64,000 nucleotides of DNA from an uncultured Mycoplasmatota bacterium (lineage in GTDB: Bacteria; Bacillota_I; Bacilli_A; RF39; UBA660), in assembly GCA_900549285.1 (NCBI GenBank), contig URNW01000004.1, positions 18,969 through 82,968 on the forward strand. Direction: 5' to 3'. Below, one piece after another: positions 11,342-54,318 of this stretch (position 1 is its first letter; every line of letters begins with the position of its first letter). The translations under genes were made by a program, and so were the position numbers. The notes below the pieces were generated by a model that did not search any database, was not told the DNA's origin, and saw only the letters and a program-made list of their open reading frames with translations.

Positions 11342-11358
11342 TTTTACCTCCATTTAGG

Positions 11359-29904: not shown

Positions 29905-29979
29905 ATCTTTACTACATCTATTATATAGTATTTTCTATTTTCTCACAAGTAGTAAAATAAAAAACTCCCTTTTAGGAAG

Positions 29980-30585
29980 TTACATATAATTATAAATTAG
30001 TACTTTACCAGTGAAGGTGTTTCCCATAATATCATTGCCAGCATTTTCATCTATCCATAAATATAGATTATAAGTTACAGATTCTCCTGGAGCAAGAGTA
30101 CCATCTATTAAATTATAAGTTGTATCTATATTATATTCACTTTTAATTGATCCTAAGTCATATGTTGAAGCAGTCGTTAACATTGCACTTGGATTTTCTT
30201 TACTTGTTGGACTTGTCTCATTTAACTTATATCTTAAACTTGGAGTTAGATTTGATATTGGACTCGTTAATGTGTTTAAGGTAACTTTATAATGAATTGG
30301 ATCTTTAGCATTAGATGTAGTACATGTATTTGTAATTGTAAATGTGTATGGTTTTACTTTTGATAAAGCTGTTTGTTCACTCATTGGATAAGCATAAGTT
30401 CCATTTGCATTCATAGTAATGGAATCACCATCTACGTAATTTACTTGAAAACATGTTGTTGTTATTTCATTAGGAGTTGTTTGTTTACTTGCCACTGAAT
30501 AATAAGAATAACTTGTTCCAATTGTAATTGTTACGAGTATCATAATTGTTAAAACTCCAAGAGTAATTTTATAACCACTTCTCAT
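29980..30585 (-). CDS. N-terminally anchored secreted protein, TasA/camelysin-like (weak)
   Basis: 201 aa. TM then GTSYSYYSVASK, a beta-rich core, and NLYLWIDENAGNDIMGNTFTGKVLIY. Tandem paralogue of 28771-29904. Confidence 0.35.
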   Translation of the reverse strand: MRSGYKITLGVLTIMILVTITIGTSYSYYSVASKQTTPNEITTTCFQVNYVDGDSITMNANGTYAYPMSEQTALSKVKPYTFTITNTCTTSNAKDPIHYKVTLNTLTSPISNLTPSLRYKLNETSPTSKENPSAMLTTASTYDLGSIKSEYNIDTTYNLIDGTLAPGESVTYNLYLWIDENAGNDIMGNTFTGKVLIYNYM

Positions 30586-30649
30586 ATTATCACCTATTTT
30601 ACTATTTATAATTATAAGATATTTTTGTCATTCCTACAAGTACTTTTTA

Positions 30650-32065
30650 CTAATTTTTAATAAATATTGCTTTTTTACCATCTAAGCTAAAACTTTTAGC
30701 ATCTGTTATTTCTACTGGTATTATTTTGCCAATATCTTGTGTTGCATCATTTATATTTACTAATTTCATAGTTTTAGTATAACCATATACTTTATCTTTT
30801 CCTTTTTCACTTGGGCCTAAAACTAATACTTCTTCTATTTTACCAATATACTCTTTATTATGAGATAAGCTATCAGCATTTATTAAATTATTTAATTCTT
30901 GTAATCTTTTTTCTTTTTCTTCTTTAGAAATATTATCTTTAATTTTAGAAGCAGGCGTTCCTTCTCTAGGAGAATAAATAAATGTAAAAGCTCCATCAAA
31001 TTTACATTCTTTTACTACTTCTAAAGTTTCTTTAAAATCTTCTTTGGTTTCATTAGGAAATCCTACTATGATATCTGTTGTAATACTAACATTTTTTATT
31101 TTTTCTTTTATTTTTTTATATAGTGTTAAATATTCTTCTTTTGTATAACGTCTTCCCATTAGTTTTAAAATTCTACTACTTCCACTTTGAAGAGGTAAAT
31201 GAATGTAAGGCATTATATTTTCATATTTTTGGATGACATCTATCATTTCATCTGTAAAATCCCAAGGATGAGAAGTTACAAAACGAATTCTTGGGATTCC
31301 TGTTTTAGCTACATCTTCTAGTAAACTCGCAAAATTATATTCTTCTTCTAAATCTTTTCCATAAGCATTTACATTTTGACCTAGTAAGGTTATTTCTAAA
31401 TAGCCTTCTTTTTTTAAATTTTCTATTTCTTTTATAATTTCTTCTTTTTTACGACTTCTTTGACGACCTCTTGTAAAAGGAACAATACAATATGTACAAA
31501 ATTTATCACATCCATACATAATATTTACCCATGCAGTATATTTAGAATCTCTTACATAATCCATATTTTCATAAACATTTCCTTCTATCGAATATACTTC
31601 AATTTGCCTGCTTTTACTTTCTTCTAAAATCATACTGCCTAAATCATTGATATTATGTGTGCCAAAAACAATATCTACAAAAGGATATTTTTCTTTTAAA
31701 AGCTTTGAGATTCCTTCTTCTTGAGGCATACAACCACCTATACAAATCATTAGCTCTGTTTTTTCTCTTTTTAAGTGCTTTAATCTTCCTAAAAAACCAA
31801 AGACTTTATCATGAGCATTTTCTCTTATTGCACATGTATTTAAGACAACAATATCAGCATTATTTACATCTTCTGTTTCTTTAAACCCTAAATTTTCTAA
31901 TATTCCTTTTATTTCTTCAGAATCATGAACATTCATTTGACAACCATAAGTTCTTATAAAATATTTTTTATCTTTAAACTTATCACTTTTGATATTTTTA
32001 GCATTTAAAAATTCTACTTTTTTATTTGTTCTTAAACGTGCTTGCTTCATATCTGGTAAATTCAT
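30650..32065 (-). CDS. miaB: tRNA-2-methylthio-N6-dimethylallyladenosine synthase
   Basis: 471 aa. YFIRTYGCQMNVHDSE and the radical-SAM motif CDKFCTYC, plus a TRAM tail. Confidence 0.93.
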   Translation of the reverse strand: MNLPDMKQARLRTNKKVEFLNAKNIKSDKFKDKKYFIRTYGCQMNVHDSEEIKGILENLGFKETEDVNNADIVVLNTCAIRENAHDKVFGFLGRLKHLKREKTELMICIGGCMPQEEGISKLLKEKYPFVDIVFGTHNINDLGSMILEESKSRQIEVYSIEGNVYENMDYVRDSKYTAWVNIMYGCDKFCTYCIVPFTRGRQRSRKKEEIIKEIENLKKEGYLEITLLGQNVNAYGKDLEEEYNFASLLEDVAKTGIPRIRFVTSHPWDFTDEMIDVIQKYENIMPYIHLPLQSGSSRILKLMGRRYTKEEYLTLYKKIKEKIKNVSITTDIIVGFPNETKEDFKETLEVVKECKFDGAFTFIYSPREGTPASKIKDNISKEEKEKRLQELNNLINADSLSHNKEYIGKIEEVLVLGPSEKGKDKVYGYTKTMKLVNINDATQDIGKIIPVEITDAKSFSLDGKKAIFIKN

Positions 32066-32192
32066 AATACACCATCCCTAAGTTATTATTATATCATGGT
32101 TCTTTTAGATTGTAAAAGAGAACGTAAGAATTAACTTACTTTAATTTGCCAAATCTTTGTACTTCTTTTATATTTTAAGATAAAAAACTATC

Positions 32193-32837
32193 TTATACTT
32201 TGTGGTAAGATAGTTTAATAATATAATATAATTTTAAAATTTCTTCATTAAAAGATCCGTTTATATCTTTTAAGATACTTTCATATATATATTCCATGTT
32301 ATCTACATTTTCTTTTTTATATTCATAATACAAATACTTTAATTTAGCTATTTCTTTTTCTTGATATAAATGATTGATTTCTAATAAAATTAATTTTTTA
32401 GCTTCACTTATTTGTCTTAGAGTATTATCTATTTGTAATTTCTCTATTATCTCATATTTTATATCAGTATCTTTCATTCCATAAATAATTTCTAAAACAT
32501 TTAATTCATCTTCTATTAATAATTTACTTCTATTCATGGTTAGTCCTTCTTTATTAAATTCTAGCGCTATTACATTTTTAGTATCTGTAAACAAGCAGGC
32601 ATATTCTATCCTTTTTATATTCTTTTTATCACTTACTAAGGTTTTATCATGAATACTATCTAAAAAATCTGATGATACTTTTATTTTATTACTAATTAAA
32701 TCGATAAAAGTTTTATGTTTTAACTTAATTAAAGGAATTTTTTTTAATAACTCTAGATTATCATAATCATTCCACTCATAAAAATCATATGCTTTATTTT
32801 CGCCCCAATTTAAAATTATGTCGTAATAATAATTCAT
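32193..32837 (-). CDS. YqhG-like (DUF3603-type) protein
   Basis: 214 aa. YYYDIILNWGENKAYDFYEWNDYDNLELLKKIPLIKL and CLFTDTKNVIALEF...NRSKLLIEDE match the YqhG pattern as I remember it. Confidence 0.45.
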   Translation of the reverse strand: MNYYYDIILNWGENKAYDFYEWNDYDNLELLKKIPLIKLKHKTFIDLISNKIKVSSDFLDSIHDKTLVSDKKNIKRIEYACLFTDTKNVIALEFNKEGLTMNRSKLLIEDELNVLEIIYGMKDTDIKYEIIEKLQIDNTLRQISEAKKLILLEINHLYQEKEIAKLKYLYYEYKKENVDNMEYIYESILKDINGSFNEEILKLYYIIKLSYHKV

Positions 32838-33036
32838 TCTTGATCCACCTTTCTAACGATATTCCTATTAAAGCAATTCCTATTACAAATAGCCACACTT
32901 CTACTCTTCTACTTATAAATTGAACAAATTCTATGAAACTATACCCAATTGTTAATAAATTAAGATAAATTATAATAAAAAATAGGCCAATACTAGTAAA
33001 TATGACACCAATTATGTAAAGTAATAATCGAAACAT
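32794..33036 (-). CDS. small membrane protein
   Basis: 80 aa with two or three TM helices. It overlaps the next gene by 44 nt. Confidence 0.4.
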   Translation of the reverse strand: MFRLLLYIIGVIFTSIGLFFIIIYLNLLTIGYSFIEFVQFISRRVEVWLFVIGIALIGISLERWIKNELLLRHNFKLGRK

Positions 33037-33093
33037 AGTAACTCCCCTATAATTTTATTTCTTAAATAAAAAAAATATTATATAATTAAATAG

Positions 33094-33915
33094 GTGATAA
33101 AATTGAACTATTTAATTTATATTATTTTAGGGATTATTCAGGGATTTACTGAACCGATTCCCGTATCTTCTAGTGGGCATATTTTTCTTTTTAAAAATAT
33201 TTTTAATACAGATATGTTTAATGATTTAAATTTTGAAATTGTGGCTAATTTTGGATCTTTTCTAGCTATTTTATTTATATTTAGAAAAGAAGTATGGGAA
33301 CTTTTAACAGCTTTTTTCTCTTATATTTTTAAGAAAGAGACAAGAGAAAAATATAAAAAGAAATTTAGGTACTGTATATATATTATTATTTCTACTATTC
33401 CAATTGGACTTGCTGGATTTTTATTTAAAGATTTTATTGAAGAAAAATTACAAAATATTACTATTTTAGGTTTTGCTTTCTTAATTACAGCTTTTATGCT
33501 TCTATTAGTTAAAAATAAAAATGGGAAAAAAGATGATGATGATATCACTTTAAAAGACGCTCTCATTATTGGTATATTACAAATTATAGCATTATTTCCT
33601 GGTATTAGTAGAAGTGGTACTACTTTAGTTCTTTGTTTACTGGTTGGTATGAGTAAAAATACAGCTTTAAAATATACTTTTATTTTATATTTTCCTATTA
33701 GTTTAGGAACTATGATTTTGGGAGTTAAAGATATTATGGAAGCTGGAAATTTAAGTAGCGTTGCTCTACCTTATTTTAGTGGATTATTAGCAGCATTAGT
33801 AGTTACATATTTTTCTTATCGCTGGCTTAGTAATGTTGTAAAGCGTGGTAATCTTTGGAAATTTAGCATTTATTGTGTATGTTTAGCCATATTTATCTTT
33901 ATTTATTTTAGATAA
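33094..33915 (+). CDS. uppP: undecaprenyl-diphosphate phosphatase
   Basis: 273 aa. QGFTEPIPVSSSGH and PGISRSGTT. Confidence 0.92.
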   Translation: MIKLNYLIYIILGIIQGFTEPIPVSSSGHIFLFKNIFNTDMFNDLNFEIVANFGSFLAILFIFRKEVWELLTAFFSYIFKKETREKYKKKFRYCIYIIISTIPIGLAGFLFKDFIEEKLQNITILGFAFLITAFMLLLVKNKNGKKDDDDITLKDALIIGILQIIALFPGISRSGTTLVLCLLVGMSKNTALKYTFILYFPISLGTMILGVKDIMEAGNLSSVALPYFSGLLAALVVTYFSYRWLSNVVKRGNLWKFSIYCVCLAIFIFIYFR

Positions 33916-34005
33916 AAAGCTTCACTTTATAGTGGAGCTTTTATCTTGTAAGCAAAATGATTTCATTTAAAAATTAGTTTGGCGTATAAAAAAGTGGTGA
34001 ACCAC

Positions 34006-34551
34006 TTAATTTTTAAATAATATAATATTAAATACTAATAAGACTGCTACATTAAAGGCATAACTAAATTGAAAACGTTCACATTCACCTATAGAAACGA
34101 TTAAGTCTGATGCACAAATTATCCATCCTTCTTTACTTTTGGGTTTAAATTCTTTAATACTTGCTTTTTCTTTTGGATTTATAAATGGGAAAATCTTTTT
34201 TATTAAAACATGATGGAACATATGAGTCTTAATGGCTTCTGCCTCTAATTCTGTTACATTAAAATATCTTTTGGCATTGCTAGCTGCTGTAACTGGATGT
34301 CTTAAATATGAATTTTCTGGGCTTTCTTTTCTAGTTCCGTAAAAGAAGTCATGCAAAAGTCCCGCTCTAGACACACTTTTTAAATCTGCTTTAAAATATC
34401 TTCCTAAACGATAACTTAATTTGGCTACTCTTAAAGAGTGCTCGTATTTACTTGTACCATGATGTAAATCTTTTTTTGTTTCTAAAAAATGTTCATTATT
34501 TAATATATCACACACATACTCATCAAACTCGCATTTTAAACGTTTTGTCAT
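34006..34551 (-). CDS. HD-domain phosphohydrolase
   Basis: 181 aa. HSLRVAKLS...AGLLHDFFY. Confidence 0.7.
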   Translation of the reverse strand: MTKRLKCEFDEYVCDILNNEHFLETKKDLHHGTSKYEHSLRVAKLSYRLGRYFKADLKSVSRAGLLHDFFYGTRKESPENSYLRHPVTAASNAKRYFNVTELEAEAIKTHMFHHVLIKKIFPFINPKEKASIKEFKPKSKEGWIICASDLIVSIGECERFQFSYAFNVAVLLVFNIILFKN

Positions 34552-34754
34552 CTTTTCAACTCCTACTTTTTACTTTGCGACTATTATTATTATAGTAAAT
34601 TATACTTCTTTTGTAAAGGATAAATGCTTAAATTTAATTGATAATTGTTCTATACTACTTTATATTTTAGGAAAAATTTATAAGCCAATAATTAATGATT
34701 TAATTATTATCTTTCCTCTAGTCGCATAGTTAATATTAGTTTTATTTACCCTTT

Positions 34755-34774
34755 AAAAAAGTCCTAAAAGGACT
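34755..34774 (-). terminator. candidate intrinsic terminator ~60 nt downstream of the orphan consensus promoter
   Basis: Minus strand reads AAGTCC-TTTTA-GGACTT followed by TTTT. The stem is short. Confidence 0.4.
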
Positions 34775-34823
34775 TATAAATTATGTTATTTACAACCCCC
34801 TAAATTGCTCATAACTATAGTTA

Positions 34824-34852
34824 ATTATAGCATATTTTCTTGTATTTGTCAA
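34824..34852 (-). promoter_or_regulatory. perfect consensus sigma-A promoter (TTGACA-N17-TATAAT with TGn)
   Basis: Minus strand reads TTGACA aatacaagaaaataTGc TATAAT. It lies just after the clpB terminator and ~270 nt upstream of the HD gene. Confidence 0.65.
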
Positions 34853-34864
34853 AAAGTGGACAAA

Positions 34865-34888
34865 TAAAAAAAGAAGCAATTATGCTTC
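34865..34888 (-). terminator. clpB intrinsic terminator
   Basis: Minus strand reads GAAGCA-TAAT-TGCTTC followed by T8. The stop codon lies in the loop. Confidence 0.7.
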
Positions 34889-36988
34889 CTTTAAAGTTAA
34901 ATGATCATCTTTTACATCTACTATAATGTTATCATTATATTTAATTTCATTTTTGATAATTTTATCTGCTAAAAGAGTTTCAATATTATGAGTAACATAT
35001 CTTTTAATTGGTCTTGCACCATAAGCTTCTTCATATGAATGTTCAATAATAAAATCTTTAGCTTCTTTTGTCAATTTTAAATGTAAATTAATATTTTTAA
35101 GCCTTGATTCTGTTTCATGAATGATCTTATCAAGAATACTATAAACAATATCTTTTCCTAAAGATTTGAATATGATAATTTCATCAATACGATTAATAAA
35201 TTCTGGACGGAATGTTCTTTTTAGTGCTTCCATTACTTTTGATTCACTATTTTTATCATTATCAAGAATGTATTCACTTCCTAAATTAGATGTCATAATA
35301 ATAATTGTATTTTTAAAATCAACTAATTTTCCTGTTGAATCTGTTATACGGCCATCATCTAATATTTGTAGTAAAATATTGAATACATCAGGATGAGCTT
35401 TTTCAATTTCATCAAATAACACTATACTATATGGATTTCTTCTAACTGCTTCTGTTAGCTCTCCTCCTTCATCATAACCAACATATCCTGGAGGAGCTCC
35501 AAGTAATCTCGATACATTAAAAGCTTCCATATATTCCGAACAATCTATTCTTACCATATGACGTTCATCATCAAATAATTCATAAGCTAAAGCTTTAGCT
35601 AATTCTGTTTTTCCTACTCCAGTTGGTCCCATAAAGATAAATGAGCCAATTGGACGATTAGGATCCTTAATTCCACTTCTAGCACGAATAATAGCATCAC
35701 TTACAACTTTTACTGCTTCATCTTGACCAATTACTCTTTTCTTTAGATTTGCTTCTAAACTTAATAGTTTTTCTTTTTCACCACTTACTAATTTTTGAAC
35801 TGGAATATTGGTCCATTTAGCAACAATTCTAGCAATATCTTCTTCTGTTACAGTATCACTTAACATTTGAGAATCTATTTTATGGCGTAAACTTTCAAGT
35901 TCTTGTTCTAAAGCTGGGATTGTTCCATGACGTAATCTAGCAGCTGTTTCTAAGTCATAATTATTTTCTGCTGTTTCTAATTTAAAACGAGCTTGATCTA
36001 ATTCTTCTTTTTTCTTATTAATATTATCGTTCAGACTTTTTTCTTCTTCCCATTTTTTTCGCATGGAAGACTCTTCCTCTTTTAATGTTTCTATTTCTTT
36101 TTCTAGTTCTTCCTTACGTTTCTTGGATAATTCATCTTTTTCTTTCTTGATTGCTTCTCTTTCAATTTCTAAACTCATAATTTTACGAGTTAATGTATCT
36201 AGTTCAGTTGGAACAGAAGCCATTTGCATCTTTATGGTAGCACATGCTTCGTCTACTAAATCAATTGCTTTATCTGGTAAAAAACGGTCTGTTATATAGC
36301 GATCACTAAGAGTTGCAGCACTAATTAAAGCATTGTCTTTAATATTGACACTATGGAATAATTCAAATTTTTCTTTTAAACCACGTAAGATTGTAATTGT
36401 GTCTTCTACATTGGGCTCACTTACTTGAATTTTTTGAAGTCTTCTTTCTAGGGCTCCATCTTTTTCAATGTATTTACGATATTCATTTAATGTTGTAGCA
36501 CCAATTAATCTTATCTCACCACGAGCAAGCATTGGTTTAAGCATATTCCCAGCATCCATTGCTCCTTCAGCTCCTGCACCTACAATCATATGAATTTCAT
36601 CTATAAATAAAATGATATCTCCATTAGAATCACTAATTTCTTTTAATACTTTTTTTAGACGCTCTTCAAATTCACCACGATATTTTGCTCCTGCAATTAA
36701 AGCTCCTAAATCTAAAGACCATATCCTTTTGCCTTTTAGAGTACTAGGAACATCTCCTTTCACAATACGAATAGCAAGACCTTCAACTATTGCCGTTTTA
36801 CCAACACCAGGTTCACCAATTAAAACGGGATTATTTTTTGTTTTTCTTGATAAAATACGAATAATACTACGGATTTCTTCATCACGACCAATAACAGGAT
36901 CAACTTTATTAAGTCTCACCGCTTCTGTTATATCACGGCCATATTTTTCTAAAACATTTTCGTTTTCTTCCTGCATATTTGGATACAT
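34880..36988 (-). CDS. clpB: ClpB disaggregase lacking the N-terminal domain
   Basis: 702 aa. It starts directly at [10 protein letters not shown]...[11 protein letters not shown]. Two AAA modules and a long M-domain coiled coil are present, and there is no VGF/IGF ClpP loop. The ~150-aa Clp_N domain of full-length ClpB is absent. Confidence 0.9.
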
Positions 36989-37031
36989 ATTAACACTTCC
37001 TTTCTTTTATATATATGTTATATCACAAAAA

Positions 37032-37058
37032 TTAGCACTTGTCAAGTGCAAGTGCTAA
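37032..37058. promoter_or_regulatory. CIRCE (HrcA operator) inverted repeat upstream of clpB
   Basis: TTAGCACTT-GTCAAGTGC-AAGTGCTAA against the consensus TTAGCACTC-N9-GAGTGCTAA. It lies 44 nt upstream of the clpB ATG. Confidence 0.85.
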
Positions 37059-38002
37059 TTTGTTTTTTTTATTTTAATACTGGATATCCATTTTCTCCTA
37101 ATTTCCAATTTAATAGTTGATATCCACTTAAAATCTCATCTATTTCACTTAAATTTATATTACTTATATTACTATTTAATGTATTAACAAAATTATTAGA
37201 TTTCATTTCACTATTACTCATTCTAGTTAAATTTATATTTGTATTATTGCTTCCACTTATATTATCTAAATAGTATGTATTTGATATATCAAATGTGCTT
37301 CCATCTAATAGGTACGTTATTCCATATGTATCATTATTGGAAACTATAGTGCCTATATTATAAATATTATTTAGATATAAATGATTTGCCCTATTATCAT
37401 CAAAATATACCAATGCTATTCCAGCAACTTTATAGGTGCCACTAGAAGTTACATCTCCAGCATTATAGGAATTTATAATTTTTGATGTACTTTCATTATT
37501 AATTAATCCTACTATACCCGCTGCTTGTTTTATACTTTTAACTTGTCCATTATTATAACTATTTAATATTATTGCTTCTGAATTATGATTATATCCAATT
37601 ATTCCTCCTACTGTTGTTCGGTATTCCGATTCTGATTTATCATTGGATAAAGAGGATACATTTCCAGTATTATAACTTTCATTAATAATAACTCTTCCCC
37701 CTGCTCTTAAAAATCCTAAAACACCTCCTGTTCTTAAACCATTTATTACTTCTCCAGTGTTATAAGATTGATAAATTATAGATTGTCCTTTTATATAGCC
37801 AATTAATCCACCTACACTAATTAAATTATCATATGCTTCTACAACTTCAGTCGATACTTTTCCAATATTATAACAATTATTAATTGTTGTTATGTTTGCT
37901 TCAGTATTATCCCTTCCCAATATGCCTCCAATATTATGACCAAGATTATTTACAATTATTCCTTCATTATAGCTATTTTCTACAGTTAAAATTCCTTCAT
38001 TT

Positions 38003-38009
38003 CCCCCCC
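38003..38009 (-). repeat. poly-G(7) homopolymer at the junction of the two long ORFs
   Basis: Plus-strand C7. With G7 the frame reads GTG GGG GGG AAA TGA. With G6 it reads VGGNEGILTVENSYNEGIIVNNLGHNIGGILGRDN and continues into ORF 37069-37920. Confidence 0.9.
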
Positions 38010-38926
38010 ACTAATCCTCCTGTATTATTTCCGTTACTAATACTTCCGCTATTATGACTACTTTTGATTGTAGTAGTACCCTGAGTCCATCCAATTATAC
38101 CTCCTGTACTATAGGTACTGCTTTTGCTAGTAATATTTGACTCATTATAACAATTTTCTATTGCAATATTGTATCCTCTGCCAACAATTCCTCCCAAATC
38201 TGATCTTATGTTAGTTTGAAAAATACCATCTACGCCTAAATTTTTAATGGTGGCATTCATTGCATATCCAAACAATCCTAAATAGGCTTTATCACTTTCT
38301 TCATTATAAATATATAGATTACTTATCTTTTTATTGTTTCCATCAAATATTCCTGAAAAATATCGTGATTCATCATTGTAATTACTATTTCCAATTGGAA
38401 TAAAACCACTTCCAGTTGTTAATTCTATTTTTAGCTCTTCTATTTTGCCATTGCCATTTATATCTCCATATGAAGTATTTGTATTATCTATATAGCTTTC
38501 CATATTTTGAAAATCTAAATTATTTTCTAGTCTAAAATAATTATCTTCATAAGTTATCCCATTATTTACAGCATTAGATAATGCTACTAAATCTTCTATA
38601 GTTTTTATTTTATAGGGATTTTCTGCTGTTCCTTTTCCTTCCCATGCTACATTAAAATATAAATAGCATTTTGTTTCTTCTAAAGTTACAGGCGTTACAC
38701 TTAATTCTTTAGTATTTACATTATAATTAATCGTTACATCTAATTTTTCATTTCCCTTTTTACAATAACTTTTCTCGCTATTAAATATATAACCAGCATT
38801 AGGAATTGTATCTGTTTTTGTGTATTCATTTCCTTCTTCAACATACATTCCTATTAAATTTTTACTTTGCAAAGTTTCTACACTAATTAATTTGTTTTCT
38901 TTGTTGATATCTCTTAATTTAAGATA

Positions 38927-38936
38927 CCCCCCCCCC
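38927..38936 (-). repeat. poly-G(10) homopolymer between the signal peptide and the mature protein
   Basis: Plus-strand C10, the longest G/C run in the window. Confidence 0.95.
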
Positions 38937-39011
38937 AACTACTATTAATAGTGCTGTTGAGAGGATTATAATCTTCTTTTTCATTTTATTTTCTCCTCTA
39001 TTCTATTATTA

Positions 39012-39040
39012 TTTATATCATATTATTGAAGATTTTTCAA
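39012..39040 (-). promoter_or_regulatory. candidate sigma-A promoter of the GLUG-repeat gene
   Basis: Minus strand reads TTGAAA-N17-TATAAA, 27 nt upstream of ATG 38984, followed by SD AGGAGA. Confidence 0.5.
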
Positions 39041-39091
39041 TATTGCTTTTTATTTTTATATGTAATTAAAATAAGCTCCCTTTACGAAAGC

Positions 39092-39817
39092 TTATTTTAT
39101 AATAGATTCTAAACCTAATTTAATCATATCATTTAATTTTGTTTGTCTTTCTTCTGGACTTAATACAACGTCTGAATATTTAGAATCTGATACTGTCATA
39201 AGGGTAGTTGCTTCTACATTCATAGTATTGGCAACATGACATACACCAAATCCTTCCATTTCTTCTCCAAGAATTTCATATTCGCTTGGAATACGCTCTA
39301 GAACTCTATCATAATCAATATATGGGCCAAAAACATCCATGGTTGTAGTCATACCATAATGTAAATTAATATTTAATTCTCTAGCAGTACTTAAAATAAC
39401 TTTATTTAGATTTTCATTTGCCTCTACTACATTTCCTACATAATTATTATATGTATAAGCAAAATTAGATTCTGAATAAATTTCTTTTGTAAGAATAACA
39501 TCACCAACATCTGCTTTAGGACTTACGGCTCCGCATGTTCCAATTCTAATGATTCTTTTTACATGAAAGAAATGAATTAATTCAAATACATAAATACTAG
39601 CACTAGGCATGCCCATTCCATGAGCCATTACAGTAATTTTTTTCCCTTTATATGTTCCTGTATATCCTGACATATTTCTTATGTTTGTAACTAGTTTCGC
39701 ATTTTCTAGAAAATTATCTGCTATATATTTAGCCCTTAATGGGTCTCCTGGCATTAATACTAATTCTCCAATATCTGCTTTTGCTTCAATATGAATTGGT
39801 TCTTCTCCAATAAACAT
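39092..39817 (-). CDS. deoD: purine nucleoside phosphorylase, DeoD type
   Basis: 241 aa. LMPGDPLRAKYIA, GHGMGMPS and EMEGFG. Confidence 0.9.
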   Translation of the reverse strand: MFIGEEPIHIEAKADIGELVLMPGDPLRAKYIADNFLENAKLVTNIRNMSGYTGTYKGKKITVMAHGMGMPSASIYVFELIHFFHVKRIIRIGTCGAVSPKADVGDVILTKEIYSESNFAYTYNNYVGNVVEANENLNKVILSTARELNINLHYGMTTTMDVFGPYIDYDRVLERIPSEYEILGEEMEGFGVCHVANTMNVEATTLMTVSDSKYSDVVLSPEERQTKLNDMIKLGLESIIK

Positions 39818-39871
39818 AACATCACCTATTATAATATTATCATATCTTGAGAAAAAAATTAATTCCTAAAA

Positions 39872-40390
39872 TTATTTCTTTACACTTCTTTGTAATAACA
39901 ATTTATCTTCTCTTAAACTATCTCTATATAGAGAACTATTTAGTTCTTCTAAATGTTTTTCGAAACATTCTCCTTCATTATTTTTCATTAAATTGTATAG
40001 ATTAGCTTTAATAGATCCGCTTATTTGAAGTTTTGATAATATTTTCCATAAAAACTCTGGATCTTCTTCATAGATTGTTAATAAATCTATTTCATATAAA
40101 TAACTTAAATAAACTAAATATGTGGATAATCGTAAATTATTTTTTTCATAGGGTATAATTAAATCTTCTACTGGTACTATTAAATGAGCATTACGAGTTA
40201 AATATAAATCATTTAATCCTAGACTTTTTAGGGTTAGACTTTTATTTTCTAATTCTTTTATGTCTTGTTCTAATAATAAAATATGTAATAATTTTACTTT
40301 TGTTTTTAGAAGTCTTTTTTCTTCTATAAATTGTTTTAAAGTTATTCCTTCTAACTTTTCTTTACTTGTTATTACATTTTTTTCATTCAT
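39872..40390 (-). CDS. hypothetical protein
   Basis: 172-aa helical ORF with no recognisable motif. Confidence 0.4.
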   Translation of the reverse strand: MNEKNVITSKEKLEGITLKQFIEEKRLLKTKVKLLHILLLEQDIKELENKSLTLKSLGLNDLYLTRNAHLIVPVEDLIIPYEKNNLRLSTYLVYLSYLYEIDLLTIYEEDPEFLWKILSKLQISGSIKANLYNLMKNNEGECFEKHLEELNSSLYRDSLREDKLLLQRSVKK

Positions 40391-40436
40391 TAAAAAAACC
40401 TCTCTTTCTTATAAGAGAAGTTTATGTATTATTTTT

Positions 40437-41669
40437 TTATTTATGCATTAAATCATTTTCTATTTTCATTAAACGATTATATTTAGCTATTCTTTCCCCT
40501 CTTGACATAGATCCTGTTTTAATAAAAGGAATGGATAGCCCAACAGCAAAATCAGCAATAAAGGTGTCTTCTGTTTCTCCACTTCTATGAGATATGATCA
40601 TTTTATAATTGTTCTTACGAGCTAAAATAATAGTTTTAATCATTTCTGTTACTGTTCCAATTTGATTGGCTTTTAAAAGAATGGCATTTCCTGCTTTTAA
40701 ATTAATTCCTTTTTCTAAATATTTAGCATTAGTAACAAAATAATCGTCTCCTACTAGCATAATTTTTTCACCAATAAATTTAGTTAATACTGCTAAGGAT
40801 TCAAAATCATTTTCTTCAAATGGATCTTCAATACTAATAATAGGATATTTATTAACAAGAGTAATATAATACTTAATTAATTCATCACTTGTTAGATCCT
40901 GTTTATCTATTCTATAAGTTTTTGTTTCTTTATTATATAATTCACTAGCTGCTATATCTAAAGCAATAAATACCTCTATTCCTGGTTTATAGCCGCTTTT
41001 TTCTATTGCTTCCATAATTAAATCTAAAGCTAAATTATTATATTCTAAGTTGGGAGCAAATCCACCTTCATCCCCAACACTGGTAGCTAGTCCTTGTTCT
41101 TTTAAAATATCTTTTAAAGTATGAAAGATCTCACTTGCTACTCTTACACGATTAGACATTCCCTTTATAGTTGGAACAATCATAAATTCTTGAATATCTA
41201 AATTATTGTCAGCATGAACACCACCGTTAATTACATTTACCATTGGTAGTGGCATACTTACTCTTCCTCCACTCAAATAAGCATATAATTCTTTATTCTC
41301 ACTTTTAGCAGAAGCTTTAATGCTTGCTAGCGATACAGCAAGAGTAGCATTGGCACCTAAATTACTTTTATTTTCTGTTCCATCTAAATTGATCAACAAT
41401 TTATCAATCATAACTTGTTCTAATTCTTTTCCGATTAAATTATCTTTAATAATTGTATTAATATTATTAACTGCTTTTAGTACACCTTTTTTATGATATC
41501 TTTTATCATTGTCTCTTAATTCTAAAGCTTCTTTTGAACCAGTTGATGCTCCACTTGGTACAGAAGCCGTAGCAGTTATTCCATTATCTAAATAAATTGT
41601 AGCTTCTACAGTAGGATTTCCTCTACTATCTAAAATTTCTCTTCCTACTAAGTCAATAATTTTTGGCAT
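40437..41669 (-). CDS. eno: enolase
   Basis: GREILDSRGNPTVE, SHRSGETED. I prefer ATG 41669 (SD AGGTGA) over the track GTG at 41678, which lies inside the SD. Confidence 0.95.
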   Translation of the reverse strand: MPKIIDLVGREILDSRGNPTVEATIYLDNGITATASVPSGASTGSKEALELRDNDKRYHKKGVLKAVNNINTIIKDNLIGKELEQVMIDKLLINLDGTENKSNLGANATLAVSLASIKASAKSENKELYAYLSGGRVSMPLPMVNVINGGVHADNNLDIQEFMIVPTIKGMSNRVRVASEIFHTLKDILKEQGLATSVGDEGGFAPNLEYNNLALDLIMEAIEKSGYKPGIEVFIALDIAASELYNKETKTYRIDKQDLTSDELIKYYITLVNKYPIISIEDPFEENDFESLAVLTKFIGEKIMLVGDDYFVTNAKYLEKGINLKAGNAILLKANQIGTVTEMIKTIILARKNNYKMIISHRSGETEDTFIADFAVGLSIPFIKTGSMSRGERIAKYNRLMKIENDLMHK

Positions 41670-41783
41670 TTTTATCACCTACTTCCTTATAAGTATACCA
41701 AATTTAAGCCTTTCTTATCAATCTTTTTACATATTCTATTATTATTTTTTGACTAAACTTTACTATTTTGTTACAATGTATTT

Positions 41784-42797
41784 ATGGTGAATAGAATGAA
41801 TGATATCAATTATATAAAAATTAGTATTCCAAATTTACTTCATAATATTAAGACTTTTAAAAATGATTATTCTTATTGTATTATGGATGTTAGTAATAAT
41901 GCTTTTTTCCATGGTATGTATTTAATTAAATATTTAACTCATGAAATTGATTATTTATATGTTTCTCATTTCTATGATTTGCAACTTATTCGTAAATATA
42001 ATCAATCTATACCAGTTATTTATGGTGGAGATATTACTTTAGATAATATTTTTGATTTAATTATCCATAATGCTATTGTTGTTATTAGAGACTTGCAATT
42101 ATTAAAACAAATTAAAGAGTTAAATATCAAAGATTCTTTATCTTTTCTTTTTGAGATTGATCCTAGTGGTATATATGGGATTGATAATAAAGAATGTATT
42201 TTAGATTATTTAGAGTGGAATCATCCATCTTTTAATCTATTAGGTATTATTGCTCGAATTAAAGAAGAAGATGAAAAATTTCTATCCATTATAAAGCCTC
42301 TTTCTAATTTGAAACTAGTTATTTTAAATCATGAGGGAAATAAAAAGAGATTTAATCATTCCAATGCTATTAGGCTTGATCAATCTATTTATGGTATTAA
42401 TATGTATCCAAAAAGGATATTAAAAAGAAATATTCCTGTTTATCAACAAGCTTTTACCTTATGTTCTAAAGTTTCAACCATAAAAAAAATAAGTCATCAT
42501 AAAAAAATAAAATTTATTGCGATTATTCCATTTGGATATGATCACGGAATGAGTAATCATATTAAATATATTTATATAGAAAATGCTTTGTATCCTGTTT
42601 TTCATATTACAAATGAATTTACAGAAATTTTGGTAGATGAATCTATCGAAAAAGATATGAATGTTGAAATTACTTCTTCTAATAATCCTTTAGAAAATTA
42701 TTTTCCATCACAAACTTTAAATTATTTTGCTTTATTTCATTTAAATATTCCCATAGTTTTTGATGATTATATTTTAGAAAAAACGTTAATTTATTAA
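41784..42797 (+). CDS. alanine-racemase-fold protein lacking the catalytic lysine (probable pseudoenzyme or new activity)
   Basis: 337 aa. CIMDVSNNAFFHG aligns to the Alr motif avVKANAYGHG with K replaced by S. IIPFGYDHG corresponds to iPiGYADG. The SYG tyrosine region is not recognisable. Confidence 0.45.
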   Translation: MVNRMNDINYIKISIPNLLHNIKTFKNDYSYCIMDVSNNAFFHGMYLIKYLTHEIDYLYVSHFYDLQLIRKYNQSIPVIYGGDITLDNIFDLIIHNAIVVIRDLQLLKQIKELNIKDSLSFLFEIDPSGIYGIDNKECILDYLEWNHPSFNLLGIIARIKEEDEKFLSIIKPLSNLKLVILNHEGNKKRFNHSNAIRLDQSIYGINMYPKRILKRNIPVYQQAFTLCSKVSTIKKISHHKKIKFIAIIPFGYDHGMSNHIKYIYIENALYPVFHITNEFTEILVDESIEKDMNVEITSSNNPLENYFPSQTLNYFALFHLNIPIVFDDYILEKTLIY

Positions 42798-42814
42798 AAA
42801 AGATGTCAAAAGTT

Positions 42815-42843
42815 ATTGACATCTTTCTTTATTAATGATATAT
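42815..42843 (+). promoter_or_regulatory. tRNA operon promoter
   Basis: TTGACA-N17-TATTAT with TGn upstream of the -10 box, 21 nt before tRNA-Val. The -35 box lies within the hairpin GATGTCAA...TTGACATC that follows the previous gene. Confidence 0.6.
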
Positions 42844-42864
42844 TAAATTACGTCAATGGCGAAT

Positions 42865-42941
42865 GGGCGCTTAGCTCAGTTGGTTAGAGCACCTGCCTTA
42901 CAAGCAGGGGGTCATAGGTTCGAGTCCTATAGCGCCCACCA
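42865..42941 (+). tRNA. tRNA-Val (anticodon TAC), CCA encoded
   Basis: Cloverleaf readable by eye. Acceptor GGGCGCT/AGCGCCC, anticodon loop CTTACAA, T-loop GGTTCGAGTCC. Confidence 0.9.
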
Positions 42942-42953
42942 TTTTATTTTTTT

Positions 42954-43029
42954 GCCGACATAGCGTAACTGGCAGCGCAACTGACTTGTAATCAGTAGGT
43001 TGGGGGTTCGACTCCCTCTGTCGGCACCA
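42954..43029 (+). tRNA. tRNA-Thr (anticodon TGT), CCA encoded
   Basis: Acceptor GCCGACA/TGTCGGC. The anticodon arm ACTGA-CTTGTAA-TCAGT matches Bacillus tRNA-Thr(UGU). Confidence 0.9.
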
Positions 43030-43038
43030 TTAAATTAT

Positions 43039-43122
43039 GGGGAGATAGCGAAGTGGTCAAACGCGGCAGACTGTAAATCTGTTCCTTCGGGTTCCATGGT
43101 TCAAATCCATGTCTCCCCACCA
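43039..43122 (+). tRNA. tRNA-Tyr (anticodon GTA), long variable arm, CCA encoded
   Basis: Acceptor GGGGAGA/TCTCCCC, anticodon loop CTGTAAA, variable arm TCCTTCGGG. Confidence 0.9.
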
Positions 43123-43131
43123 CTTAATTAT

Positions 43132-43207
43132 TGCCTCGTAGCCAAGTGGTAAGGCATCAGACTTTGACTCTGACATTCCGCTGGTTCGAACCCAGCCGAG
43201 GCAGCCA
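43132..43207 (+). tRNA. tRNA-Gln (anticodon TTG), CCA encoded
   Basis: Acceptor TGCCTCG/CGAGGCA, anticodon loop CTTTGAC. Confidence 0.9.
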
Positions 43208-43212
43208 TACTT

Positions 43213-43288
43213 GGTTCGCTAGCTCAGTAGGTAGAGCATTTGACTTTTAATCAAAGGGTCCCGGGTTCGAATCCCGGGCGAGCCACCA
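43213..43288 (+). tRNA. tRNA-Lys (anticodon TTT), CCA encoded
   Basis: Acceptor GGTTCGC/GCGAGCC, anticodon loop CTTTTAA. Confidence 0.9.
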
Positions 43289-43302
43289 TTTTAGTTTATA
43301 AA

Positions 43303-43324
43303 AGTCCTATTTTTAGGGCTTTTT
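43303..43324 (+). terminator. tRNA operon terminator
   Basis: AGTCCTA-TTTT-TAGGGCT followed by TTTT. Confidence 0.6.
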
Positions 43325-43350
43325 ATTATTTTATAATTATTGGCAAATAA

Positions 43351-43381
43351 AAAGTATGCTAGCATAAGCTAGCATATTTTT
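43351..43381. terminator. bidirectional hairpin terminator
   Basis: ATGCTAGC-ATAA-GCTAGCAT flanked by an A run and a T run. It serves the convergent gene 43395-44624. Confidence 0.65.
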
Positions 43382-43394
43382 TATAAAATGTATT

Positions 43395-44624
43395 TTAAAT
43401 TTTACTTTGGTATATACTTTTAATGGCATTTACTACAGCAATTTTACCATAATTATACGTTACTCCTCCTTGTTGATAAGCGATAAATGGCACTCTCAGA
43501 GGTCCATCACAAGATAATTCTATACTAGATCCTTGAGTAAATGAACCACTTGCCATAATAATTTCATCCTCATATCCTGGCATTGGGGATGGTATTGGTA
43601 AAACTTTAGAGTCTATTGGAGAATACTTTTGAATTTCTTGAACGTATTTTATTAGTAAATCTCTATCTTTAAAAGTGATTGCTTCTACTATATCGGCTCT
43701 ATTTTCATTATATCTTGGTGATACTTCAAAGCCTAATTTTTCTAGTAGATAAGAAGTTAAAACACTGGTTTTAAGACTAGATGCTACTACACTAGGGGCA
43801 AAATATAATCCCTGTAAAATACTTTTATTTGCTCCTAGACTTGGTCCTACATCAATTCCCTCTCCTGGTAAATTCAATCTTTCAGCACATAAATTAATTA
43901 GTTTCTCATCTCCACAAATATAGGCACCATTAGATGCTAATGATCCTCCTAAATTCTTAATTAAAGACCCTACTATAATATTTGCTCCTACTTCTAGAGG
44001 AGATGTTTTTTCTACCATCTCACAATAACAGTTATCAATCATAATGATTACATTTGAATCAATTTTTCGTATCTCTTTTATCACTTCTTCAATCTCTTTT
44101 ATTAAAATACTTTTTCGTGTGGAATATCCCCTGCTTCTTTGTATTTCAATTACTTTTATTTTTTTCTCTTTTATCTTTTTTATAATACTGGGAATATCAA
44201 AATGATTGTCTATTAAATCTATTTGTTCATAGTTAATTTTAAAACTTTTTAGTGAACTAGGATTTTCTTTAATCCCAATTACTTCATGTAAGGTATCATA
44301 TGGTAACCCTGTAATAGAAAGCATGGTATCACCAGGACGTAGTAAAGCAAAAAGGGTTGTTGATAAAGCATGAGAACCACTAATAAACTGATTCCTTACT
44401 AAAGCTTTTTCTCCTTTTAGAACATGGGCGAAAACTCGTTCAATAGCATCTCTTCCAATATCATTATAACCATATCCTGTTGTCATATTAAAATGAGCTT
44501 CATTTATATTTTCTTTGTGAAAAGCTTCTAAAACTAACTTGCTAAAATAAGTTTCCGTTTCATCTATTTCATTATAAATCTCTTTACAATCTTTTTCTGC
44601 CTCTTTTAGTAATTCTTCTATCAT
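43395..44624 (-). CDS. methionine gamma-lyase family protein (YnbB / aluminium-resistance family)
   Basis: 409 aa. TGYGYNDIGRDAIERVFAHV...FISGSHALS. Confidence 0.7.
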   Translation of the reverse strand: MIEELLKEAEKDCKEIYNEIDETETYFSKLVLEAFHKENINEAHFNMTTGYGYNDIGRDAIERVFAHVLKGEKALVRNQFISGSHALSTTLFALLRPGDTMLSITGLPYDTLHEVIGIKENPSSLKSFKINYEQIDLIDNHFDIPSIIKKIKEKKIKVIEIQRSRGYSTRKSILIKEIEEVIKEIRKIDSNVIIMIDNCYCEMVEKTSPLEVGANIIVGSLIKNLGGSLASNGAYICGDEKLINLCAERLNLPGEGIDVGPSLGANKSILQGLYFAPSVVASSLKTSVLTSYLLEKLGFEVSPRYNENRADIVEAITFKDRDLLIKYVQEIQKYSPIDSKVLPIPSPMPGYEDEIIMASGSFTQGSSIELSCDGPLRVPFIAYQQGGVTYNYGKIAVVNAIKSIYQSKI

Positions 44625-44658
44625 ATTTTTAACCTCCTTTAAATATTTTTATAAAGAA

Positions 44659-45372
44659 CTAATTTCTATTTCCTCCATCCACTCTAATCACAGAACTATT
44701 AATATAACTGGCATCATCACTGGCAAGAAAAAAAACAACCTTAGCTATTTCCTCAGGATTCGCAAAACGATTTAATAATATTTTTTTGGTTTCTTCTAAG
44801 CGATATTCTTCATCTAATTCTTTATTCATTTCAGTATTTATCCATCCTGGAGCTACTGTATTTACTCTTATATTAGGAGCATATTCTATTGCTAAATTTT
44901 TTGTTAATGATATTACTCCTGCTTTTGATGCATCATAATCTAAACCATAAGGATAATATGTATCTATCCCATTCGTTGAAGAAATATTAATGATACTTCC
45001 TTTTTTCATAATTTTATGACCATATTTGCAAACTAAAAAAGTTCCTATTAAATTTACATCTAAAATCTTTTGAAATGTTTCTTTATTCTTAGCATCTACT
45101 TCACTATCTAAAGATATTCCTGCATTATTAATTATAATATCAATATGTCCCTGTTCCTTTTTTATTTTTTCAATCATTTCTTCTACTTCAATTTCATTTG
45201 ATACATCACATTTTATTGGAATGGCATTTGAATATTTTGCACATAAACTTTCAGCTTCTTTTTTACTACTATAAAAATTTACATATACAATATCTTTATT
45301 CTCTAAAAAAAGGGTTGCTATAGAAGCTCCTAGTCCTCTTGATGATCCTGTTACTAAAACAACTCTATTCAT
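44659..45372 (-). CDS. SDR family oxidoreductase (FabG-like)
   Basis: VLVTGSSRGLG, NNAG and Y...K (YDASKAG). I prefer ATG 45372 (SD AGGTGA) over the track start 45393. Confidence 0.85.
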   Translation of the reverse strand: MNRVVLVTGSSRGLGASIATLFLENKDIVYVNFYSSKKEAESLCAKYSNAIPIKCDVSNEIEVEEMIEKIKKEQGHIDIIINNAGISLDSEVDAKNKETFQKILDVNLIGTFLVCKYGHKIMKKGSIINISSTNGIDTYYPYGLDYDASKAGVISLTKNLAIEYAPNIRVNTVAPGWINTEMNKELDEEYRLEETKKILLNRFANPEEIAKVVFFLASDDASYINSSVIRVDGGNRN

Positions 45373-45376
45373 ATTA

Positions 45377-46615
45377 TCACCTGCTAAGTTCATTATTATA
45401 TACTAAAGTATTGATGATTTCTACTGTTTTCTTTTCGCTTCCTAAATAATATTCTAAATTAATTGATCCCCTTTCCCCTAAATCTAAATAACTAAAAACA
45501 TTTTCTAAATACATGGAATCTCCATGATTTTTATTTTGTTCTTCATAATATCGATTAATTAAATCTCTAGCTTTTATAGCATTTTCATCTGTAAAGTAAT
45601 CTTCTTTATTTAAACCATAATAATCACAAGCAATACCTAAAGCAAACTCTCCTTGATTATAAGAAAACAGACCTAATATTAGACTATCAAATTTATCTAT
45701 ACATGTTCTTAAATAGGCTAAACCAACTTTTATATTACCATCTGGTGTATCTAATAGTTCCTTTGTAATTTCAAATGTTTCATATTCTCCAGTAAATCCT
45801 TCATTATTGTAAATTGGAACCGTCATGGTTTGACCAACAAATAAACTATAAGTGATCTGACATACATTTTCACATACGCCATTTTTTATATTGGGTCTTT
45901 CTTGGGTAATTTGGGCACATGCCAAATCATAAGGGATTCCATATCTAGTACAATATTTAAGAATTGAATCTTTAAAATACATTTCTGTTTCTTCTAACTT
46001 AGTGGTGTTAGTATCTATACGATTACTTTCAGTGCGATCTTTAAAAGCTAGTTTTACGGCGAAGTCTGCTTGATTTTCTATAGTTGGTTCTAATGAAAAT
46101 TCTTTTAAGTTAGCTTTTGGTACTTCTTTTAAGTTCATCTCATAATTTATGTTGGGTAATGTTGCTATTTTATCTGATTTTGATAACTCTTTATTCATCA
46201 TGCCCGCTAACAGAGAAATACTGAGTGAAACACTTAATGTTCCTGCAATAATTGCTTTTGGCATTCTTTTACTTTTGATTCTATTTACATGTTTGGACTT
46301 TTTTATTTCTGTTATGTTTTTTGGTTCTATAAAACGTTTAATTCTATTTAATAACTTAAAAAAGTAGTGATCATAAGAATCTTGTTGCATTAAAAATATT
46401 TTAGTATTATCAATTACTAAAGAAAAATTATTTTCAAAAGCAATTTCCATTACTTTGTCATTATCTATAATATTTTTTATCTTATTTTCAGTTATTTTAG
46501 ATAGAAGTGTTATAATTTCTTTTTCGTTTAGGCTTATGTAATTGATGCGATCATTTTCATATTTATAAGCATAATATCTCCGTCCATTATTATAATCAAT
46601 ATAGAATTTATTCAT
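45377..46615 (-). CDS. membrane-anchored protein with possible lytic-transglycosylase-like C-terminal domain
   Basis: One TM (AIIAGTLSVSLSISLLAGMM). The C-terminal half has CAQITQERP...CQIT...LFSYNQGEF, which is loosely SLT-like. I prefer ATG 46615. Confidence 0.3.
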   Translation of the reverse strand: MNKFYIDYNNGRRYYAYKYENDRINYISLNEKEIITLLSKITENKIKNIIDNDKVMEIAFENNFSLVIDNTKIFLMQQDSYDHYFFKLLNRIKRFIEPKNITEIKKSKHVNRIKSKRMPKAIIAGTLSVSLSISLLAGMMNKELSKSDKIATLPNINYEMNLKEVPKANLKEFSLEPTIENQADFAVKLAFKDRTESNRIDTNTTKLEETEMYFKDSILKYCTRYGIPYDLACAQITQERPNIKNGVCENVCQITYSLFVGQTMTVPIYNNEGFTGEYETFEITKELLDTPDGNIKVGLAYLRTCIDKFDSLILGLFSYNQGEFALGIACDYYGLNKEDYFTDENAIKARDLINRYYEEQNKNHGDSMYLENVFSYLDLGERGSINLEYYLGSEKKTVEIINTLVYNNELSR

Positions 46616-53590: not shown

Positions 53591-53698
53591 TATATTTTAT
53601 TTGTGGTATGTCTAATTATATCATTAATTCATTTAATTGTTAATTAAAAATTAGTTTTATCTTCGTTTAATATATGTTAAAATTAAAGTGGTGATAAT

Positions 53699-54019
53699 AT
53701 GAAAGATTATATTGATCAATATATTTTAGAACTAGAAAAAAAATTAGATCGTAAAGAGCTTGATAAAACTTTATTAGATGAGGTTTTAATTAAAATTGAT
53801 TTCTTTAATAAAGAAAGAATCATTCACCTTCTTATTACTCTATTTTATGCTTTATTTGCTATTTTATTTATTTGTCATATTAAAGAATCTATCATTTATT
53901 TAATTTTTGCTTTCTTTATGATTTGCTTTTTAATTCCTTATATTATTCATTATTTTCGTTTAGAAGCTCGAGTACAATATCTTTATAAACTTTATGATAA
54001 AATAAAAATTCAGATTTAA
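53699..54019 (+). CDS. small membrane protein
   Basis: 106 aa with two TM helices. Confidence 0.4.
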   Translation: MKDYIDQYILELEKKLDRKELDKTLLDEVLIKIDFFNKERIIHLLITLFYALFAILFICHIKESIIYLIFAFFMICFLIPYIIHYFRLEARVQYLYKLYDKIKIQI

Positions 54020-54045
54020 TCTCTGAATTTTCTTTTACTGCTATA

Positions 54046-54318
54046 TTAGTTTAAAGCATCTTTTAATTTGCTTCCAGCCTTGAATGAAGCTACAGTCTTA
54101 GCAGGAATTTTAATTGCTTCTTTAGTTAAAGGATTAATTCCTTCACGTGCAGCACGTTTTTTAGCACTAAATGTTCCAAAACCAACTAAAGTTACTTTTC
54201 CTTCTTTCTTTAGTCCTGTTTGGATTCCCTCTAATAAAGCATCTAATACGCGTCCTACTTCAGCTTTTGATACTTCAGCTTTAGCAGCAGCAAATTCTAC
54301 TAATTCAGTTCTTGACAT
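54046..54318 (-). CDS. hup: HU family DNA-binding protein
   Basis: 90 aa. MSRTELVEFAA...LVGFGTFSAKKRAAREGINPLTKEAIKIPA. Confidence 0.95.
   Translation of the reverse strand: MSRTELVEFAAAKAEVSKAEVGRVLDALLEGIQTGLKKEGKVTLVGFGTFSAKKRAAREGINPLTKEAIKIPAKTVASFKAGSKLKDALN

Follow-up and report, generated by a model that had tools for sequence, protein, structure and literature searches.

The stretch of DNA analysed here (the window, 64 kb from an uncultured Mycoplasmatota bacterium) contains a run of seven G residues, tract 2, in the middle of a gene for a GLUG-repeat protein, and the leader of the same gene carries a run of ten G residues, tract 1. The question raised by this locus is whether tract 2 is a switch, a lesion in a gene that is being lost, or an error of sequencing or assembly. 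The initial annotation had proposed that the G7 run splits the gene, with the upstream reading frame ending in ...GGLVGGK-stop, and the sequence and its frames agree with this. The minus strand reads GGA GGA TTA GTG GGG GGG AAA TGA at this site, and the TGA that closes the upstream ORF (37997-37999) is a product of the G7 frame. Tract 2, which occupies codons V325-G326-G327 of the repaired protein, lies about 920 bp from tract 1. The coordinates of these and the other features are collected in Table 1.

The gene was re-translated with all combinations of tract lengths. A single stop-free ORF was obtained only with tract 1 at 9 or 12 and tract 2 at 6 or 9, where the frame continues through ...GGLVGGNEGILTVENSYNEG... 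to the stop at 37069 and encodes 637-639 aa; the expectation that G6 or G9 fuses both ORFs into one protein of about 637 aa was borne out in this way. When tract 1 was out of frame a stop was encountered at codon 21-23, and when tract 2 was out of frame at codon 328-333, as G5, G7 or G8 each bring a stop 1-5 codons on. With tract 1 in frame, the predicted products are 328 aa for G7, 332 aa for G8 and 637 aa for G6. The downstream ORF had been described as opening directly after the stop codon. This is true of the in-frame continuation, which starts at the tract, but not of the listed ORF, which begins at a TTG located 26 codons past the premature stop. The 283-aa downstream ORF was rejected as a separate gene, because the GGAGG located 4 nt upstream of its TTG, which might pass for a ribosome-binding site, is part of a Gly-Gly coding sequence, and because its product is predicted to lack a signal sequence. 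The predicted fold is also unbroken across the junction, and for this reason too the ORF was not taken as an independent gene.

Table 1. Features of the locus, tract alleles read in metagenome contigs, and number of contigs per predicted state (tract 1, tract 2)
Feature	Position, contig or count	Strand	Remarks
Whole gene	37069-38984	-	637 aa at tract 1 = G9, tract 2 = G6
Tract 1, G10 homopolymer	38927-38936	-	codes for signal anchor (Gly17-19); in frame at G9 or G12
Tract 2, G7 homopolymer	38003-38009	- (C7 on + strand)	read from window sequence
Leader mini-ORF, G10 frame	38919-38984	-	MKKKIIILSTALLIVVGGGVS-stop; first stop is codon 22
N-terminal-half ORF	37997-38938	-	313 aa; TTG start inside tract 1
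C-terminal-half ORF	37069-37920	-	283 aa from TTG
Promoter-like element TTGAAA-17 nt-TATAAA	39012-39040	-	TG at -15/-14; read from sequence
Ribosome-binding site AGAGGAG	38993-38999	-	3' of promoter-like element
Intrinsic-terminator-like hairpin and T run	37029-37061	-	immediately past stop codon
Cargo paralogue, 449 aa	55523-56872	-	breakpoint near 56701
Cluster of five tRNA genes	42865-43285	+
Leader A at recU cargo	L119:3898-4290		G10; strain of window's species
Leader A at recU cargo	L090:5809-6195		G9; species about 87% identical
Tract 2 = G6	L081/L104, L087, L105-L114		at least 12 samples; DNA read
Tract 2 = G8	L101-L103		3 samples; DNA read
Tract 2 = G7	every other locus		DNA read
Tract 1 = G7	L115-L118		DNA read
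Tract 1 = G8	L091, L094, L095		DNA read
Tract 1 = G9	L080, L087		DNA read
Tract 1 = G10	majority of loci		DNA read
Tract 1 = G11	L092		DNA read
Tract 1 = G4AG6, interrupted	L093:2044-2054		sequence GGGGAGGGGGG
State (10,7)	98+2 contigs
State (10,6)	16 contigs
State (9,7)	12+6 contigs
State (8 or 11,7)	22+2 contigs
State (7,7)	6+2 contigs
State (8 or 11,6)	3 contigs
State (10,8)	2 contigs
State (9,8)	1 contig

The repaired protein matched the Pfam family Glug (PF07581) in five stretches, with a score of 37.9 bits against a cut-off of 20.5. An AlphaFold2 model based on 47 homologues (pLDDT 91.9, pTM 0.88) presented an N-terminal transmembrane helix (aa 3-24), a beta-sandwich (44-112), a right-handed GLUG beta-helix (~120-590) and a C-terminal helical cap, with the tract-2 codons inside a confident strand (E325-335; block pLDDT 96-99). 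The top Foldseek matches were 3n6z (E 3e-7), 7uvk and 6xja; the same chains were matched by the sequence profile, and the parallel beta-helix fold is like that of solved GLUG domains. According to the model, therefore, the gene encodes a surface protein with a membrane anchor and a GLUG beta-helix as its core, and a transmembrane anchor with a surface beta-helix is the type of protein that is usually phase-varied. The peptide at the junction, NNTGGLVGGN-5 residues-L.VENS (NNTGGLVGG-N-E-G-I-L-T-V-E-N-S), agrees without a gap with the consensus of the 47 homologues, which indicates that G6 is the ancestral coding length.

Glug repeats and this fold are common among GLUG beta-helices, such as BACOVA_03286 (PDB 3n6z) and the N-terminal domains of streptococcal and Gemella IgA1 proteases (6xja, 7uvk). 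Unlike these, the present protein has neither an M26 peptidase domain nor an LPXTG motif, and it has an N-terminal transmembrane anchor and a small N-terminal beta-sandwich that is shared with non-GLUG paralogues. An identity as an IgA1 protease (M26) was considered and rejected, as the PDB matches span only the beta-helix part of the proteases; Pfam gave Glug only, with no Peptidase_M26 domain, and NCBIfam gave no family.

The locus was found in public assemblies by exact look-up of the DeoD and ClpB proteins, and the tracts were read directly in the DNA of the human-gut metagenome contigs retrieved; tract states were also obtained by exact-sequence cluster look-up, and the contig counts per state by exact-sequence look-up of the predicted products. 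More than 25 independent human-gut metagenome assemblies had 0-2 SNPs over 5-14 kb, an identity to the window of 99.96-100%, and most had no SNPs across the 5-7 kb around the gene. The contigs retrieved through DeoD and ClpB showed this identity over 10-14 kb. Such extreme clonality across several studies and cohorts is not usual in gut commensals and restricts the phylogenetic tests that can be applied. A SNP phylogeny was considered as a means to detect reversals at tract 2, but with zero SNPs over 5-7 kb at most loci it carries no information and was rejected.

Tract 2 was present as G6, G7 and G8 on assemblies that were otherwise identical, in line with the proposal that one GLUG gene carries a second length-variable homopolymer. 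The out-of-frame G7 was found in approximately 88% of contigs. As in the window, the commonest state in public assemblies was OFF at both tracts. The exact 313-aa protein of the N-terminal half was found on 98 contigs. The exact C-terminal ORF, which depends on tract 2 being out of frame, was found on 186. A single example of the fully in-frame (9,6) allele was seen, at the edge of contig L087, and the complete 637-aa product was not on record by exact-protein look-up in public assemblies. A scan of JGI and ENA metagenomes with a variable-gap pattern gave one match, L114, in state (10,6). The interruption of tract 1 in L093 is expected to stabilise the tract out of frame.

Four expression states had been predicted from two independent tracts. 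The four genotypes, (10,7), (9,7), (10,6) and (9,6), all occur, but these probably correspond to three phenotypes, for reasons discussed below. Among the samples, SAMEA14101848 was in state (9,7), SAMEA14101325 in (9,6), SAMEA14101072 in (8,7), SAMEA14100540 in (10,8) and ERR11478410 in (10,6). As all four gametes of (9/10) x (6/7) were present on one SNP background, there must have been recurrent mutation or recombination at the locus. No association between the states of the two tracts was detected (Fisher p = 0.14-0.48), a result of little power which fits independence; about 2 fully ON contigs were expected among approximately 173, and 0-1 were observed. Recurrence at tract 1 alone, together with two events at tract 2 (7->6 and 7->8), is sufficient to explain the matrix of tract 1 by tract 2 lengths, and the number of mutational events strictly needed at tract 2 is at least 2. 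Since approximately 8 SNP events were counted in ~6 kb against at least 2 events at a 7-nt site, tract 2 is orders of magnitude more mutable than the background. The locus thus presents two features of a contingency locus, namely a repeat inside an ORF that alters the frame, and length polymorphism with conserved flanks.

Tract 1 belongs to a conserved cassette, leader A, which comprises a promoter-like element (TTGAAA-17-TATAAA), a ribosome-binding site and the coding sequence for MK(K/R)K(V)IILSTALLIVVGGGYLKL, together with the poly-G run, and which extends in the window from 38927-38936 upstream to ~39043. The promoter-like element was absent from the output of a consensus scan, which demands a T as the sixth base of the -10 hexamer; L090 and L119 have kept the same element and ribosome-binding site ahead of their leader-A genes. 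The gene's own promoter-like element and ribosome-binding site, together with the terminator hairpin, indicate that the GLUG gene is monocistronic, between deoD and clpB. A non-GLUG cargo gene beside recU likewise begins with leader A, in which the tract flanks are identical; the protein cluster of this cargo includes 'Mycoplasma sp. CAG:776'. This recU-linked cargo was recorded in frame (407/408 aa) on ~51 contigs versus out of frame (393 aa) on ~113 contigs, so that both forms are common.

In L119, the cargo downstream of leader A (G10) is 99.8% identical to window positions 51523-56701, with other upstream neighbours (recU, PBP and a sigma factor). The corresponding paralogue in the window (55523-56872) has a tract-free leader B, a beta-sandwich that is 48% identical to aa 5-111 of the GLUG protein, and a C-terminal domain that is weakly DUF6273-like. 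Leader B also heads the GLUG orthologue P0001. The presence of leaders A and B on differing cargos across strains and species indicates that leaders and cargos are shuffled and that the poly-G leader is maintained across species. The arrangement of these sequences indicates that leaders and flanks were swapped through recombination within the gene, with an inversion between paralogues as a possible route. In one short contig, L097 (positions 100-260; SRR20550323), an MKRKVIIL-type leader, the recU-linked variant, is joined to the body of the GLUG gene; the joint reflects a genuine exchange of leaders or else a de Bruijn-graph chimera formed via the shared leader repeat.

The tracts stand out from the rest of the window, which has a G+C content of 27%: no other run of G or C in the 64 kb reaches 6, the next longest being 5, and the tracts are built of rare codons, GGG making up 8% of Gly codons and GTG 5.6% of Val codons. 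In synonymous recoding, a G run of at least 6 appeared in the gene body in 9.3% of trials, a run of at least 9 in the leader in 0.12%, and both together in 0.015% (1.5e-4). Tract 2 alone is thus mildly improbable by chance, and the tract pair is very improbable. Given that ~9% of recodings of this protein, which is rich in Gly-Gly, contain a G6 run by chance, selection for mutability is not required to explain tract 2, although such selection is plausible. The initial annotation had counted against a switch any orthologue that keeps the frame without a tract. P0001, the closest orthologue, which is 50% identical, is such a case, as it keeps the same frame and NNTGGLVGGN via GTA GGT GGC; this makes tract 2 lineage-specific, but it does not follow that the run is inert. 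In GTDB representative genomes a close orthologue was not found, the best having 38% identity.

It could be argued that tract 2 is truly G6 everywhere and that G7 results from homopolymer over-calling, as poly-G is troublesome on some platforms, each tract of the window is exactly one G above its ON length, and many Logan contigs begin 7 nt upstream of tract 1. This is very improbable. Well over 100 contigs from various assemblers and studies have G7 as their consensus (SPAdes, MEGAHIT, Logan, scaffolded and long-read-like assemblies), and G6 and G8 were called too, the calls being discrete and the lengths departing from the mode in both directions. Indels relative to the window were found solely at the two tracts, with the exception of one long-read-like contig (L081/L104), and all 23 A/T runs of at least 7 were invariant among assemblies in the 17 kb compared (window 28880-45817), those of 7-9 being identical between assemblies. 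No other long ORF of the window is broken. The caution that had been raised about systematic over-calling is therefore refuted: the majority allele G7 is genuine, as are the minority alleles G6 and G8. Equally improbable is that G7 is read to full length through programmed +1 ribosomal frameshifting or transcriptional slippage. The P-site tRNA-Gly could re-pair perfectly one base forward on the G run, an identical +1 correction is needed at both tracts, and a stop codon lies two codons past the tract. Against this, the pairing of a slippery motif with a stimulator that defines a programmed frameshift site was not found in the sequence GGG GGG AAA TGA, where a canonical stimulator is lacking and the A-site codon after the run is AAA rather than a stop or rare codon. 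Transcriptional slippage is known mainly from A/T runs of at least 9; two inefficient events in succession would be required; and recoding would be unnecessary given that G6 alleles exist in the DNA.

The more serious alternative is recent pseudogenisation at a mutational hotspot, in which a young clonal species underwent G6->G7 once and ->G8 once, the G6 alleles being ancestral survivors. The gene would then be dying, and tract 2 would have no adaptive or reversible switching. The high proportion of G7, the modal genotype being OFF at both tracts, the minimum of 2 events at tract 2, the orthologue P0001 without a tract and the 9% chance of such a run are all in favour of this explanation, and the intact downstream frame of 309 codons says nothing against it because the population is too clonal (0-2 SNPs per 7 kb). 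However, three alleles were found at a single 7-nt site as compared to about one SNP per kb-scale locus across samples, which argues that tract 2 mutates fast enough to revert. In addition, G6 was present on at least 4 SNP backgrounds (none; 34440 C>A; 35461 G>C; 38976/37248) and with three classes of tract 1, and the poly-G run of tract 1 lies in a leader cassette that is conserved across species and genes, which argues that the locus is managed by slippage and not abandoned. Pseudogenisation is therefore considered rather unlikely, though it deserves more weight than the two explanations above.

The reading that we favour, and consider probable, is that the gene is a slipped-strand simple-sequence-repeat contingency locus with two poly-G tracts in series. 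Slippage is suggested at both tracts by length changes that are exclusive, bidirectional and of single units. Slipped-strand mispairing at replication would add or remove a G. Tract 1 would be ON at G9 and OFF at G7, G8, G10 and G11, and would set whether anything is made; tract 2, in the middle of the beta-helix, would be ON at G6 and OFF at G7 and G8, and would determine whether the full 637 aa or an anchored stub of 328 aa (G7) or 332 aa (G8), missing the distal rungs and the cap, is produced. As the full-length product requires both tracts to be in frame, the arrangement would act as an AND gate. With tract 1 OFF, the ribosome would halt after 21 codons. The TTG 'start' within tract 1 has no ribosome-binding site, so tract 2 would be phenotypically masked, and the four genotype classes would give three likely phenotypes (none, anchored stub and full length).

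Judged on the sequences, switching at tract 2 may be adaptive and reversible, including within a lineage, and we infer an effect on the level of the protein; any benefit might be escape from IgA or phage. The 328-aa stub would consist of the transmembrane helix, the beta-sandwich and the first rungs of the beta-helix. A bolder extension, which we regard as quite unlikely, is a deliberate three-state display (none, a 328-aa stub with antigenic or binding properties of its own, and the full helix) driven by a portable poly-G leader that is moved by recombination from one surface-protein gene to another and from species to species. If true, this would amount to modular phase variation of the surface proteome in one lineage of uncultured gut Bacillota.

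Many of the Logan contigs break close to tract 1: L103, L106-L111 and L113 start exactly 7 nt upstream of it, and the scaffold L100 starts inside it. Within-sample heterogeneity of the tract, a drop in coverage at poly-G or the leader repeat may explain these starts. The use of the contig breaks as evidence of such heterogeneity was dropped, because the leader repeat shared with paralogues can alone break de Bruijn graphs. In the exceptional contig L081/L104 (228 kb), three single-base insertions were found within 21 nt of clpB (window 35522-35543). Together they restore the frame, giving a 703-aa product, and represent a real micro-variant or a local assembly error.

Phase variation by slippage is textbook knowledge in Campylobacter, Neisseria, Haemophilus, Helicobacter and Mycoplasma, and the switching known from gut commensals is mostly DNA inversion. 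To our knowledge, slippage phase variation has hardly been documented in uncultured gut Bacillota, although these account for a large share of the human gut flora. The mechanism is thus ordinary and already known, and it is the host lineage that is under-explored. In Campylobacter jejuni, intragenic poly-G loci reportedly include capA (Cj0628/Cj0629) and Cj0031/Cj0032, and split ORFs of the capA type are the closest match for tract 2. As in C. jejuni, the phasome of which has been surveyed (PMC6321876, PMC8437040), a poly-G run lies within the coding region of a surface or host-interaction gene in an AT-rich bacterium of the gut, a change of one base leaves two annotated ORFs in place of the gene, and tract lengths vary between otherwise near-identical genomes. 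The present case differs in its uncultured, walled Bacillota host, in a tract of G6-G8 compared with the usual G8-G13, and in that the gene carries two such tracts.

The closest match for tract 1 is pilC of Neisseria, where a poly-G run in the signal-peptide codons is said to phase-vary the surface protein PilC by frameshift; PilC has one tract, whereas here a second tract in the middle of the gene would add a truncation state. Control of one adhesin gene by two slippage-prone tracts, with combinatorial states, has been described for SabA of Helicobacter pylori (PMC2715451). In sabA these are a promoter T run, which tunes transcription, and a 5' CT repeat, whereas here both are intragenic G runs that act on the frame. 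A frameshifting homopolymer within a gene body is reportedly found in Mycobacterium tuberculosis, in the 7C tract of glpK. Homopolymer variants of ESX-1 are convergent among clinical genomes of the same species (PMC11898584). These cases are a precedent for frequent frameshifts at a 7-nt G/C run in a gene body; unlike the present locus, they concern metabolic or secretion genes of a high-G+C host and their reversibility was shown experimentally. A precedent within the Bacillota is provided by the loss-of-function switches at simple sequence repeats in Staphylococcus aureus, established by population genomics (bioRxiv 10.1101/2025.07.08.663602; review PMC7911514). Those switches were likewise inferred from recurrent changes in tract length among many genomes, from isolates of a cultured pathogen in contrast to the metagenome assemblies of an uncultured commensal used here. 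Our literature search found no papers joining the GLUG motif with phase variation, or two homopolymeric tracts with phase-variable genes, and multi-tract genes were not found by term search in a 2025 review of phase variation.

In this surface-protein gene, the differences between hosts lie only in the lengths of two G runs and are visible from public metagenome assemblies. The locus is a concrete candidate for immune or phage evasion in an uncultured gut Bacillota, and it shows that genes called 'split' or 'pseudo' in metagenome-assembled genomes may be live switches where the break lies at a G run. Look-ups of exact proteins and contigs can be used to phase-type contingency loci without reads.

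The window encodes Mur ligases (6541-7914 and 9875-11353), which indicates that the organism has a cell wall and is a peptidoglycan-bearing, low-G+C member of the Bacillota. Sporulation genes (SpoIIGA, a sigma factor, YabP and YqfD) were found in the related species represented by L090 (1017-2497; 10961-12387). Given the Mur ligases in the window and the sporulation genes in its relative, the database label 'Mycoplasma sp. CAG:776' for that relative is a misnomer.
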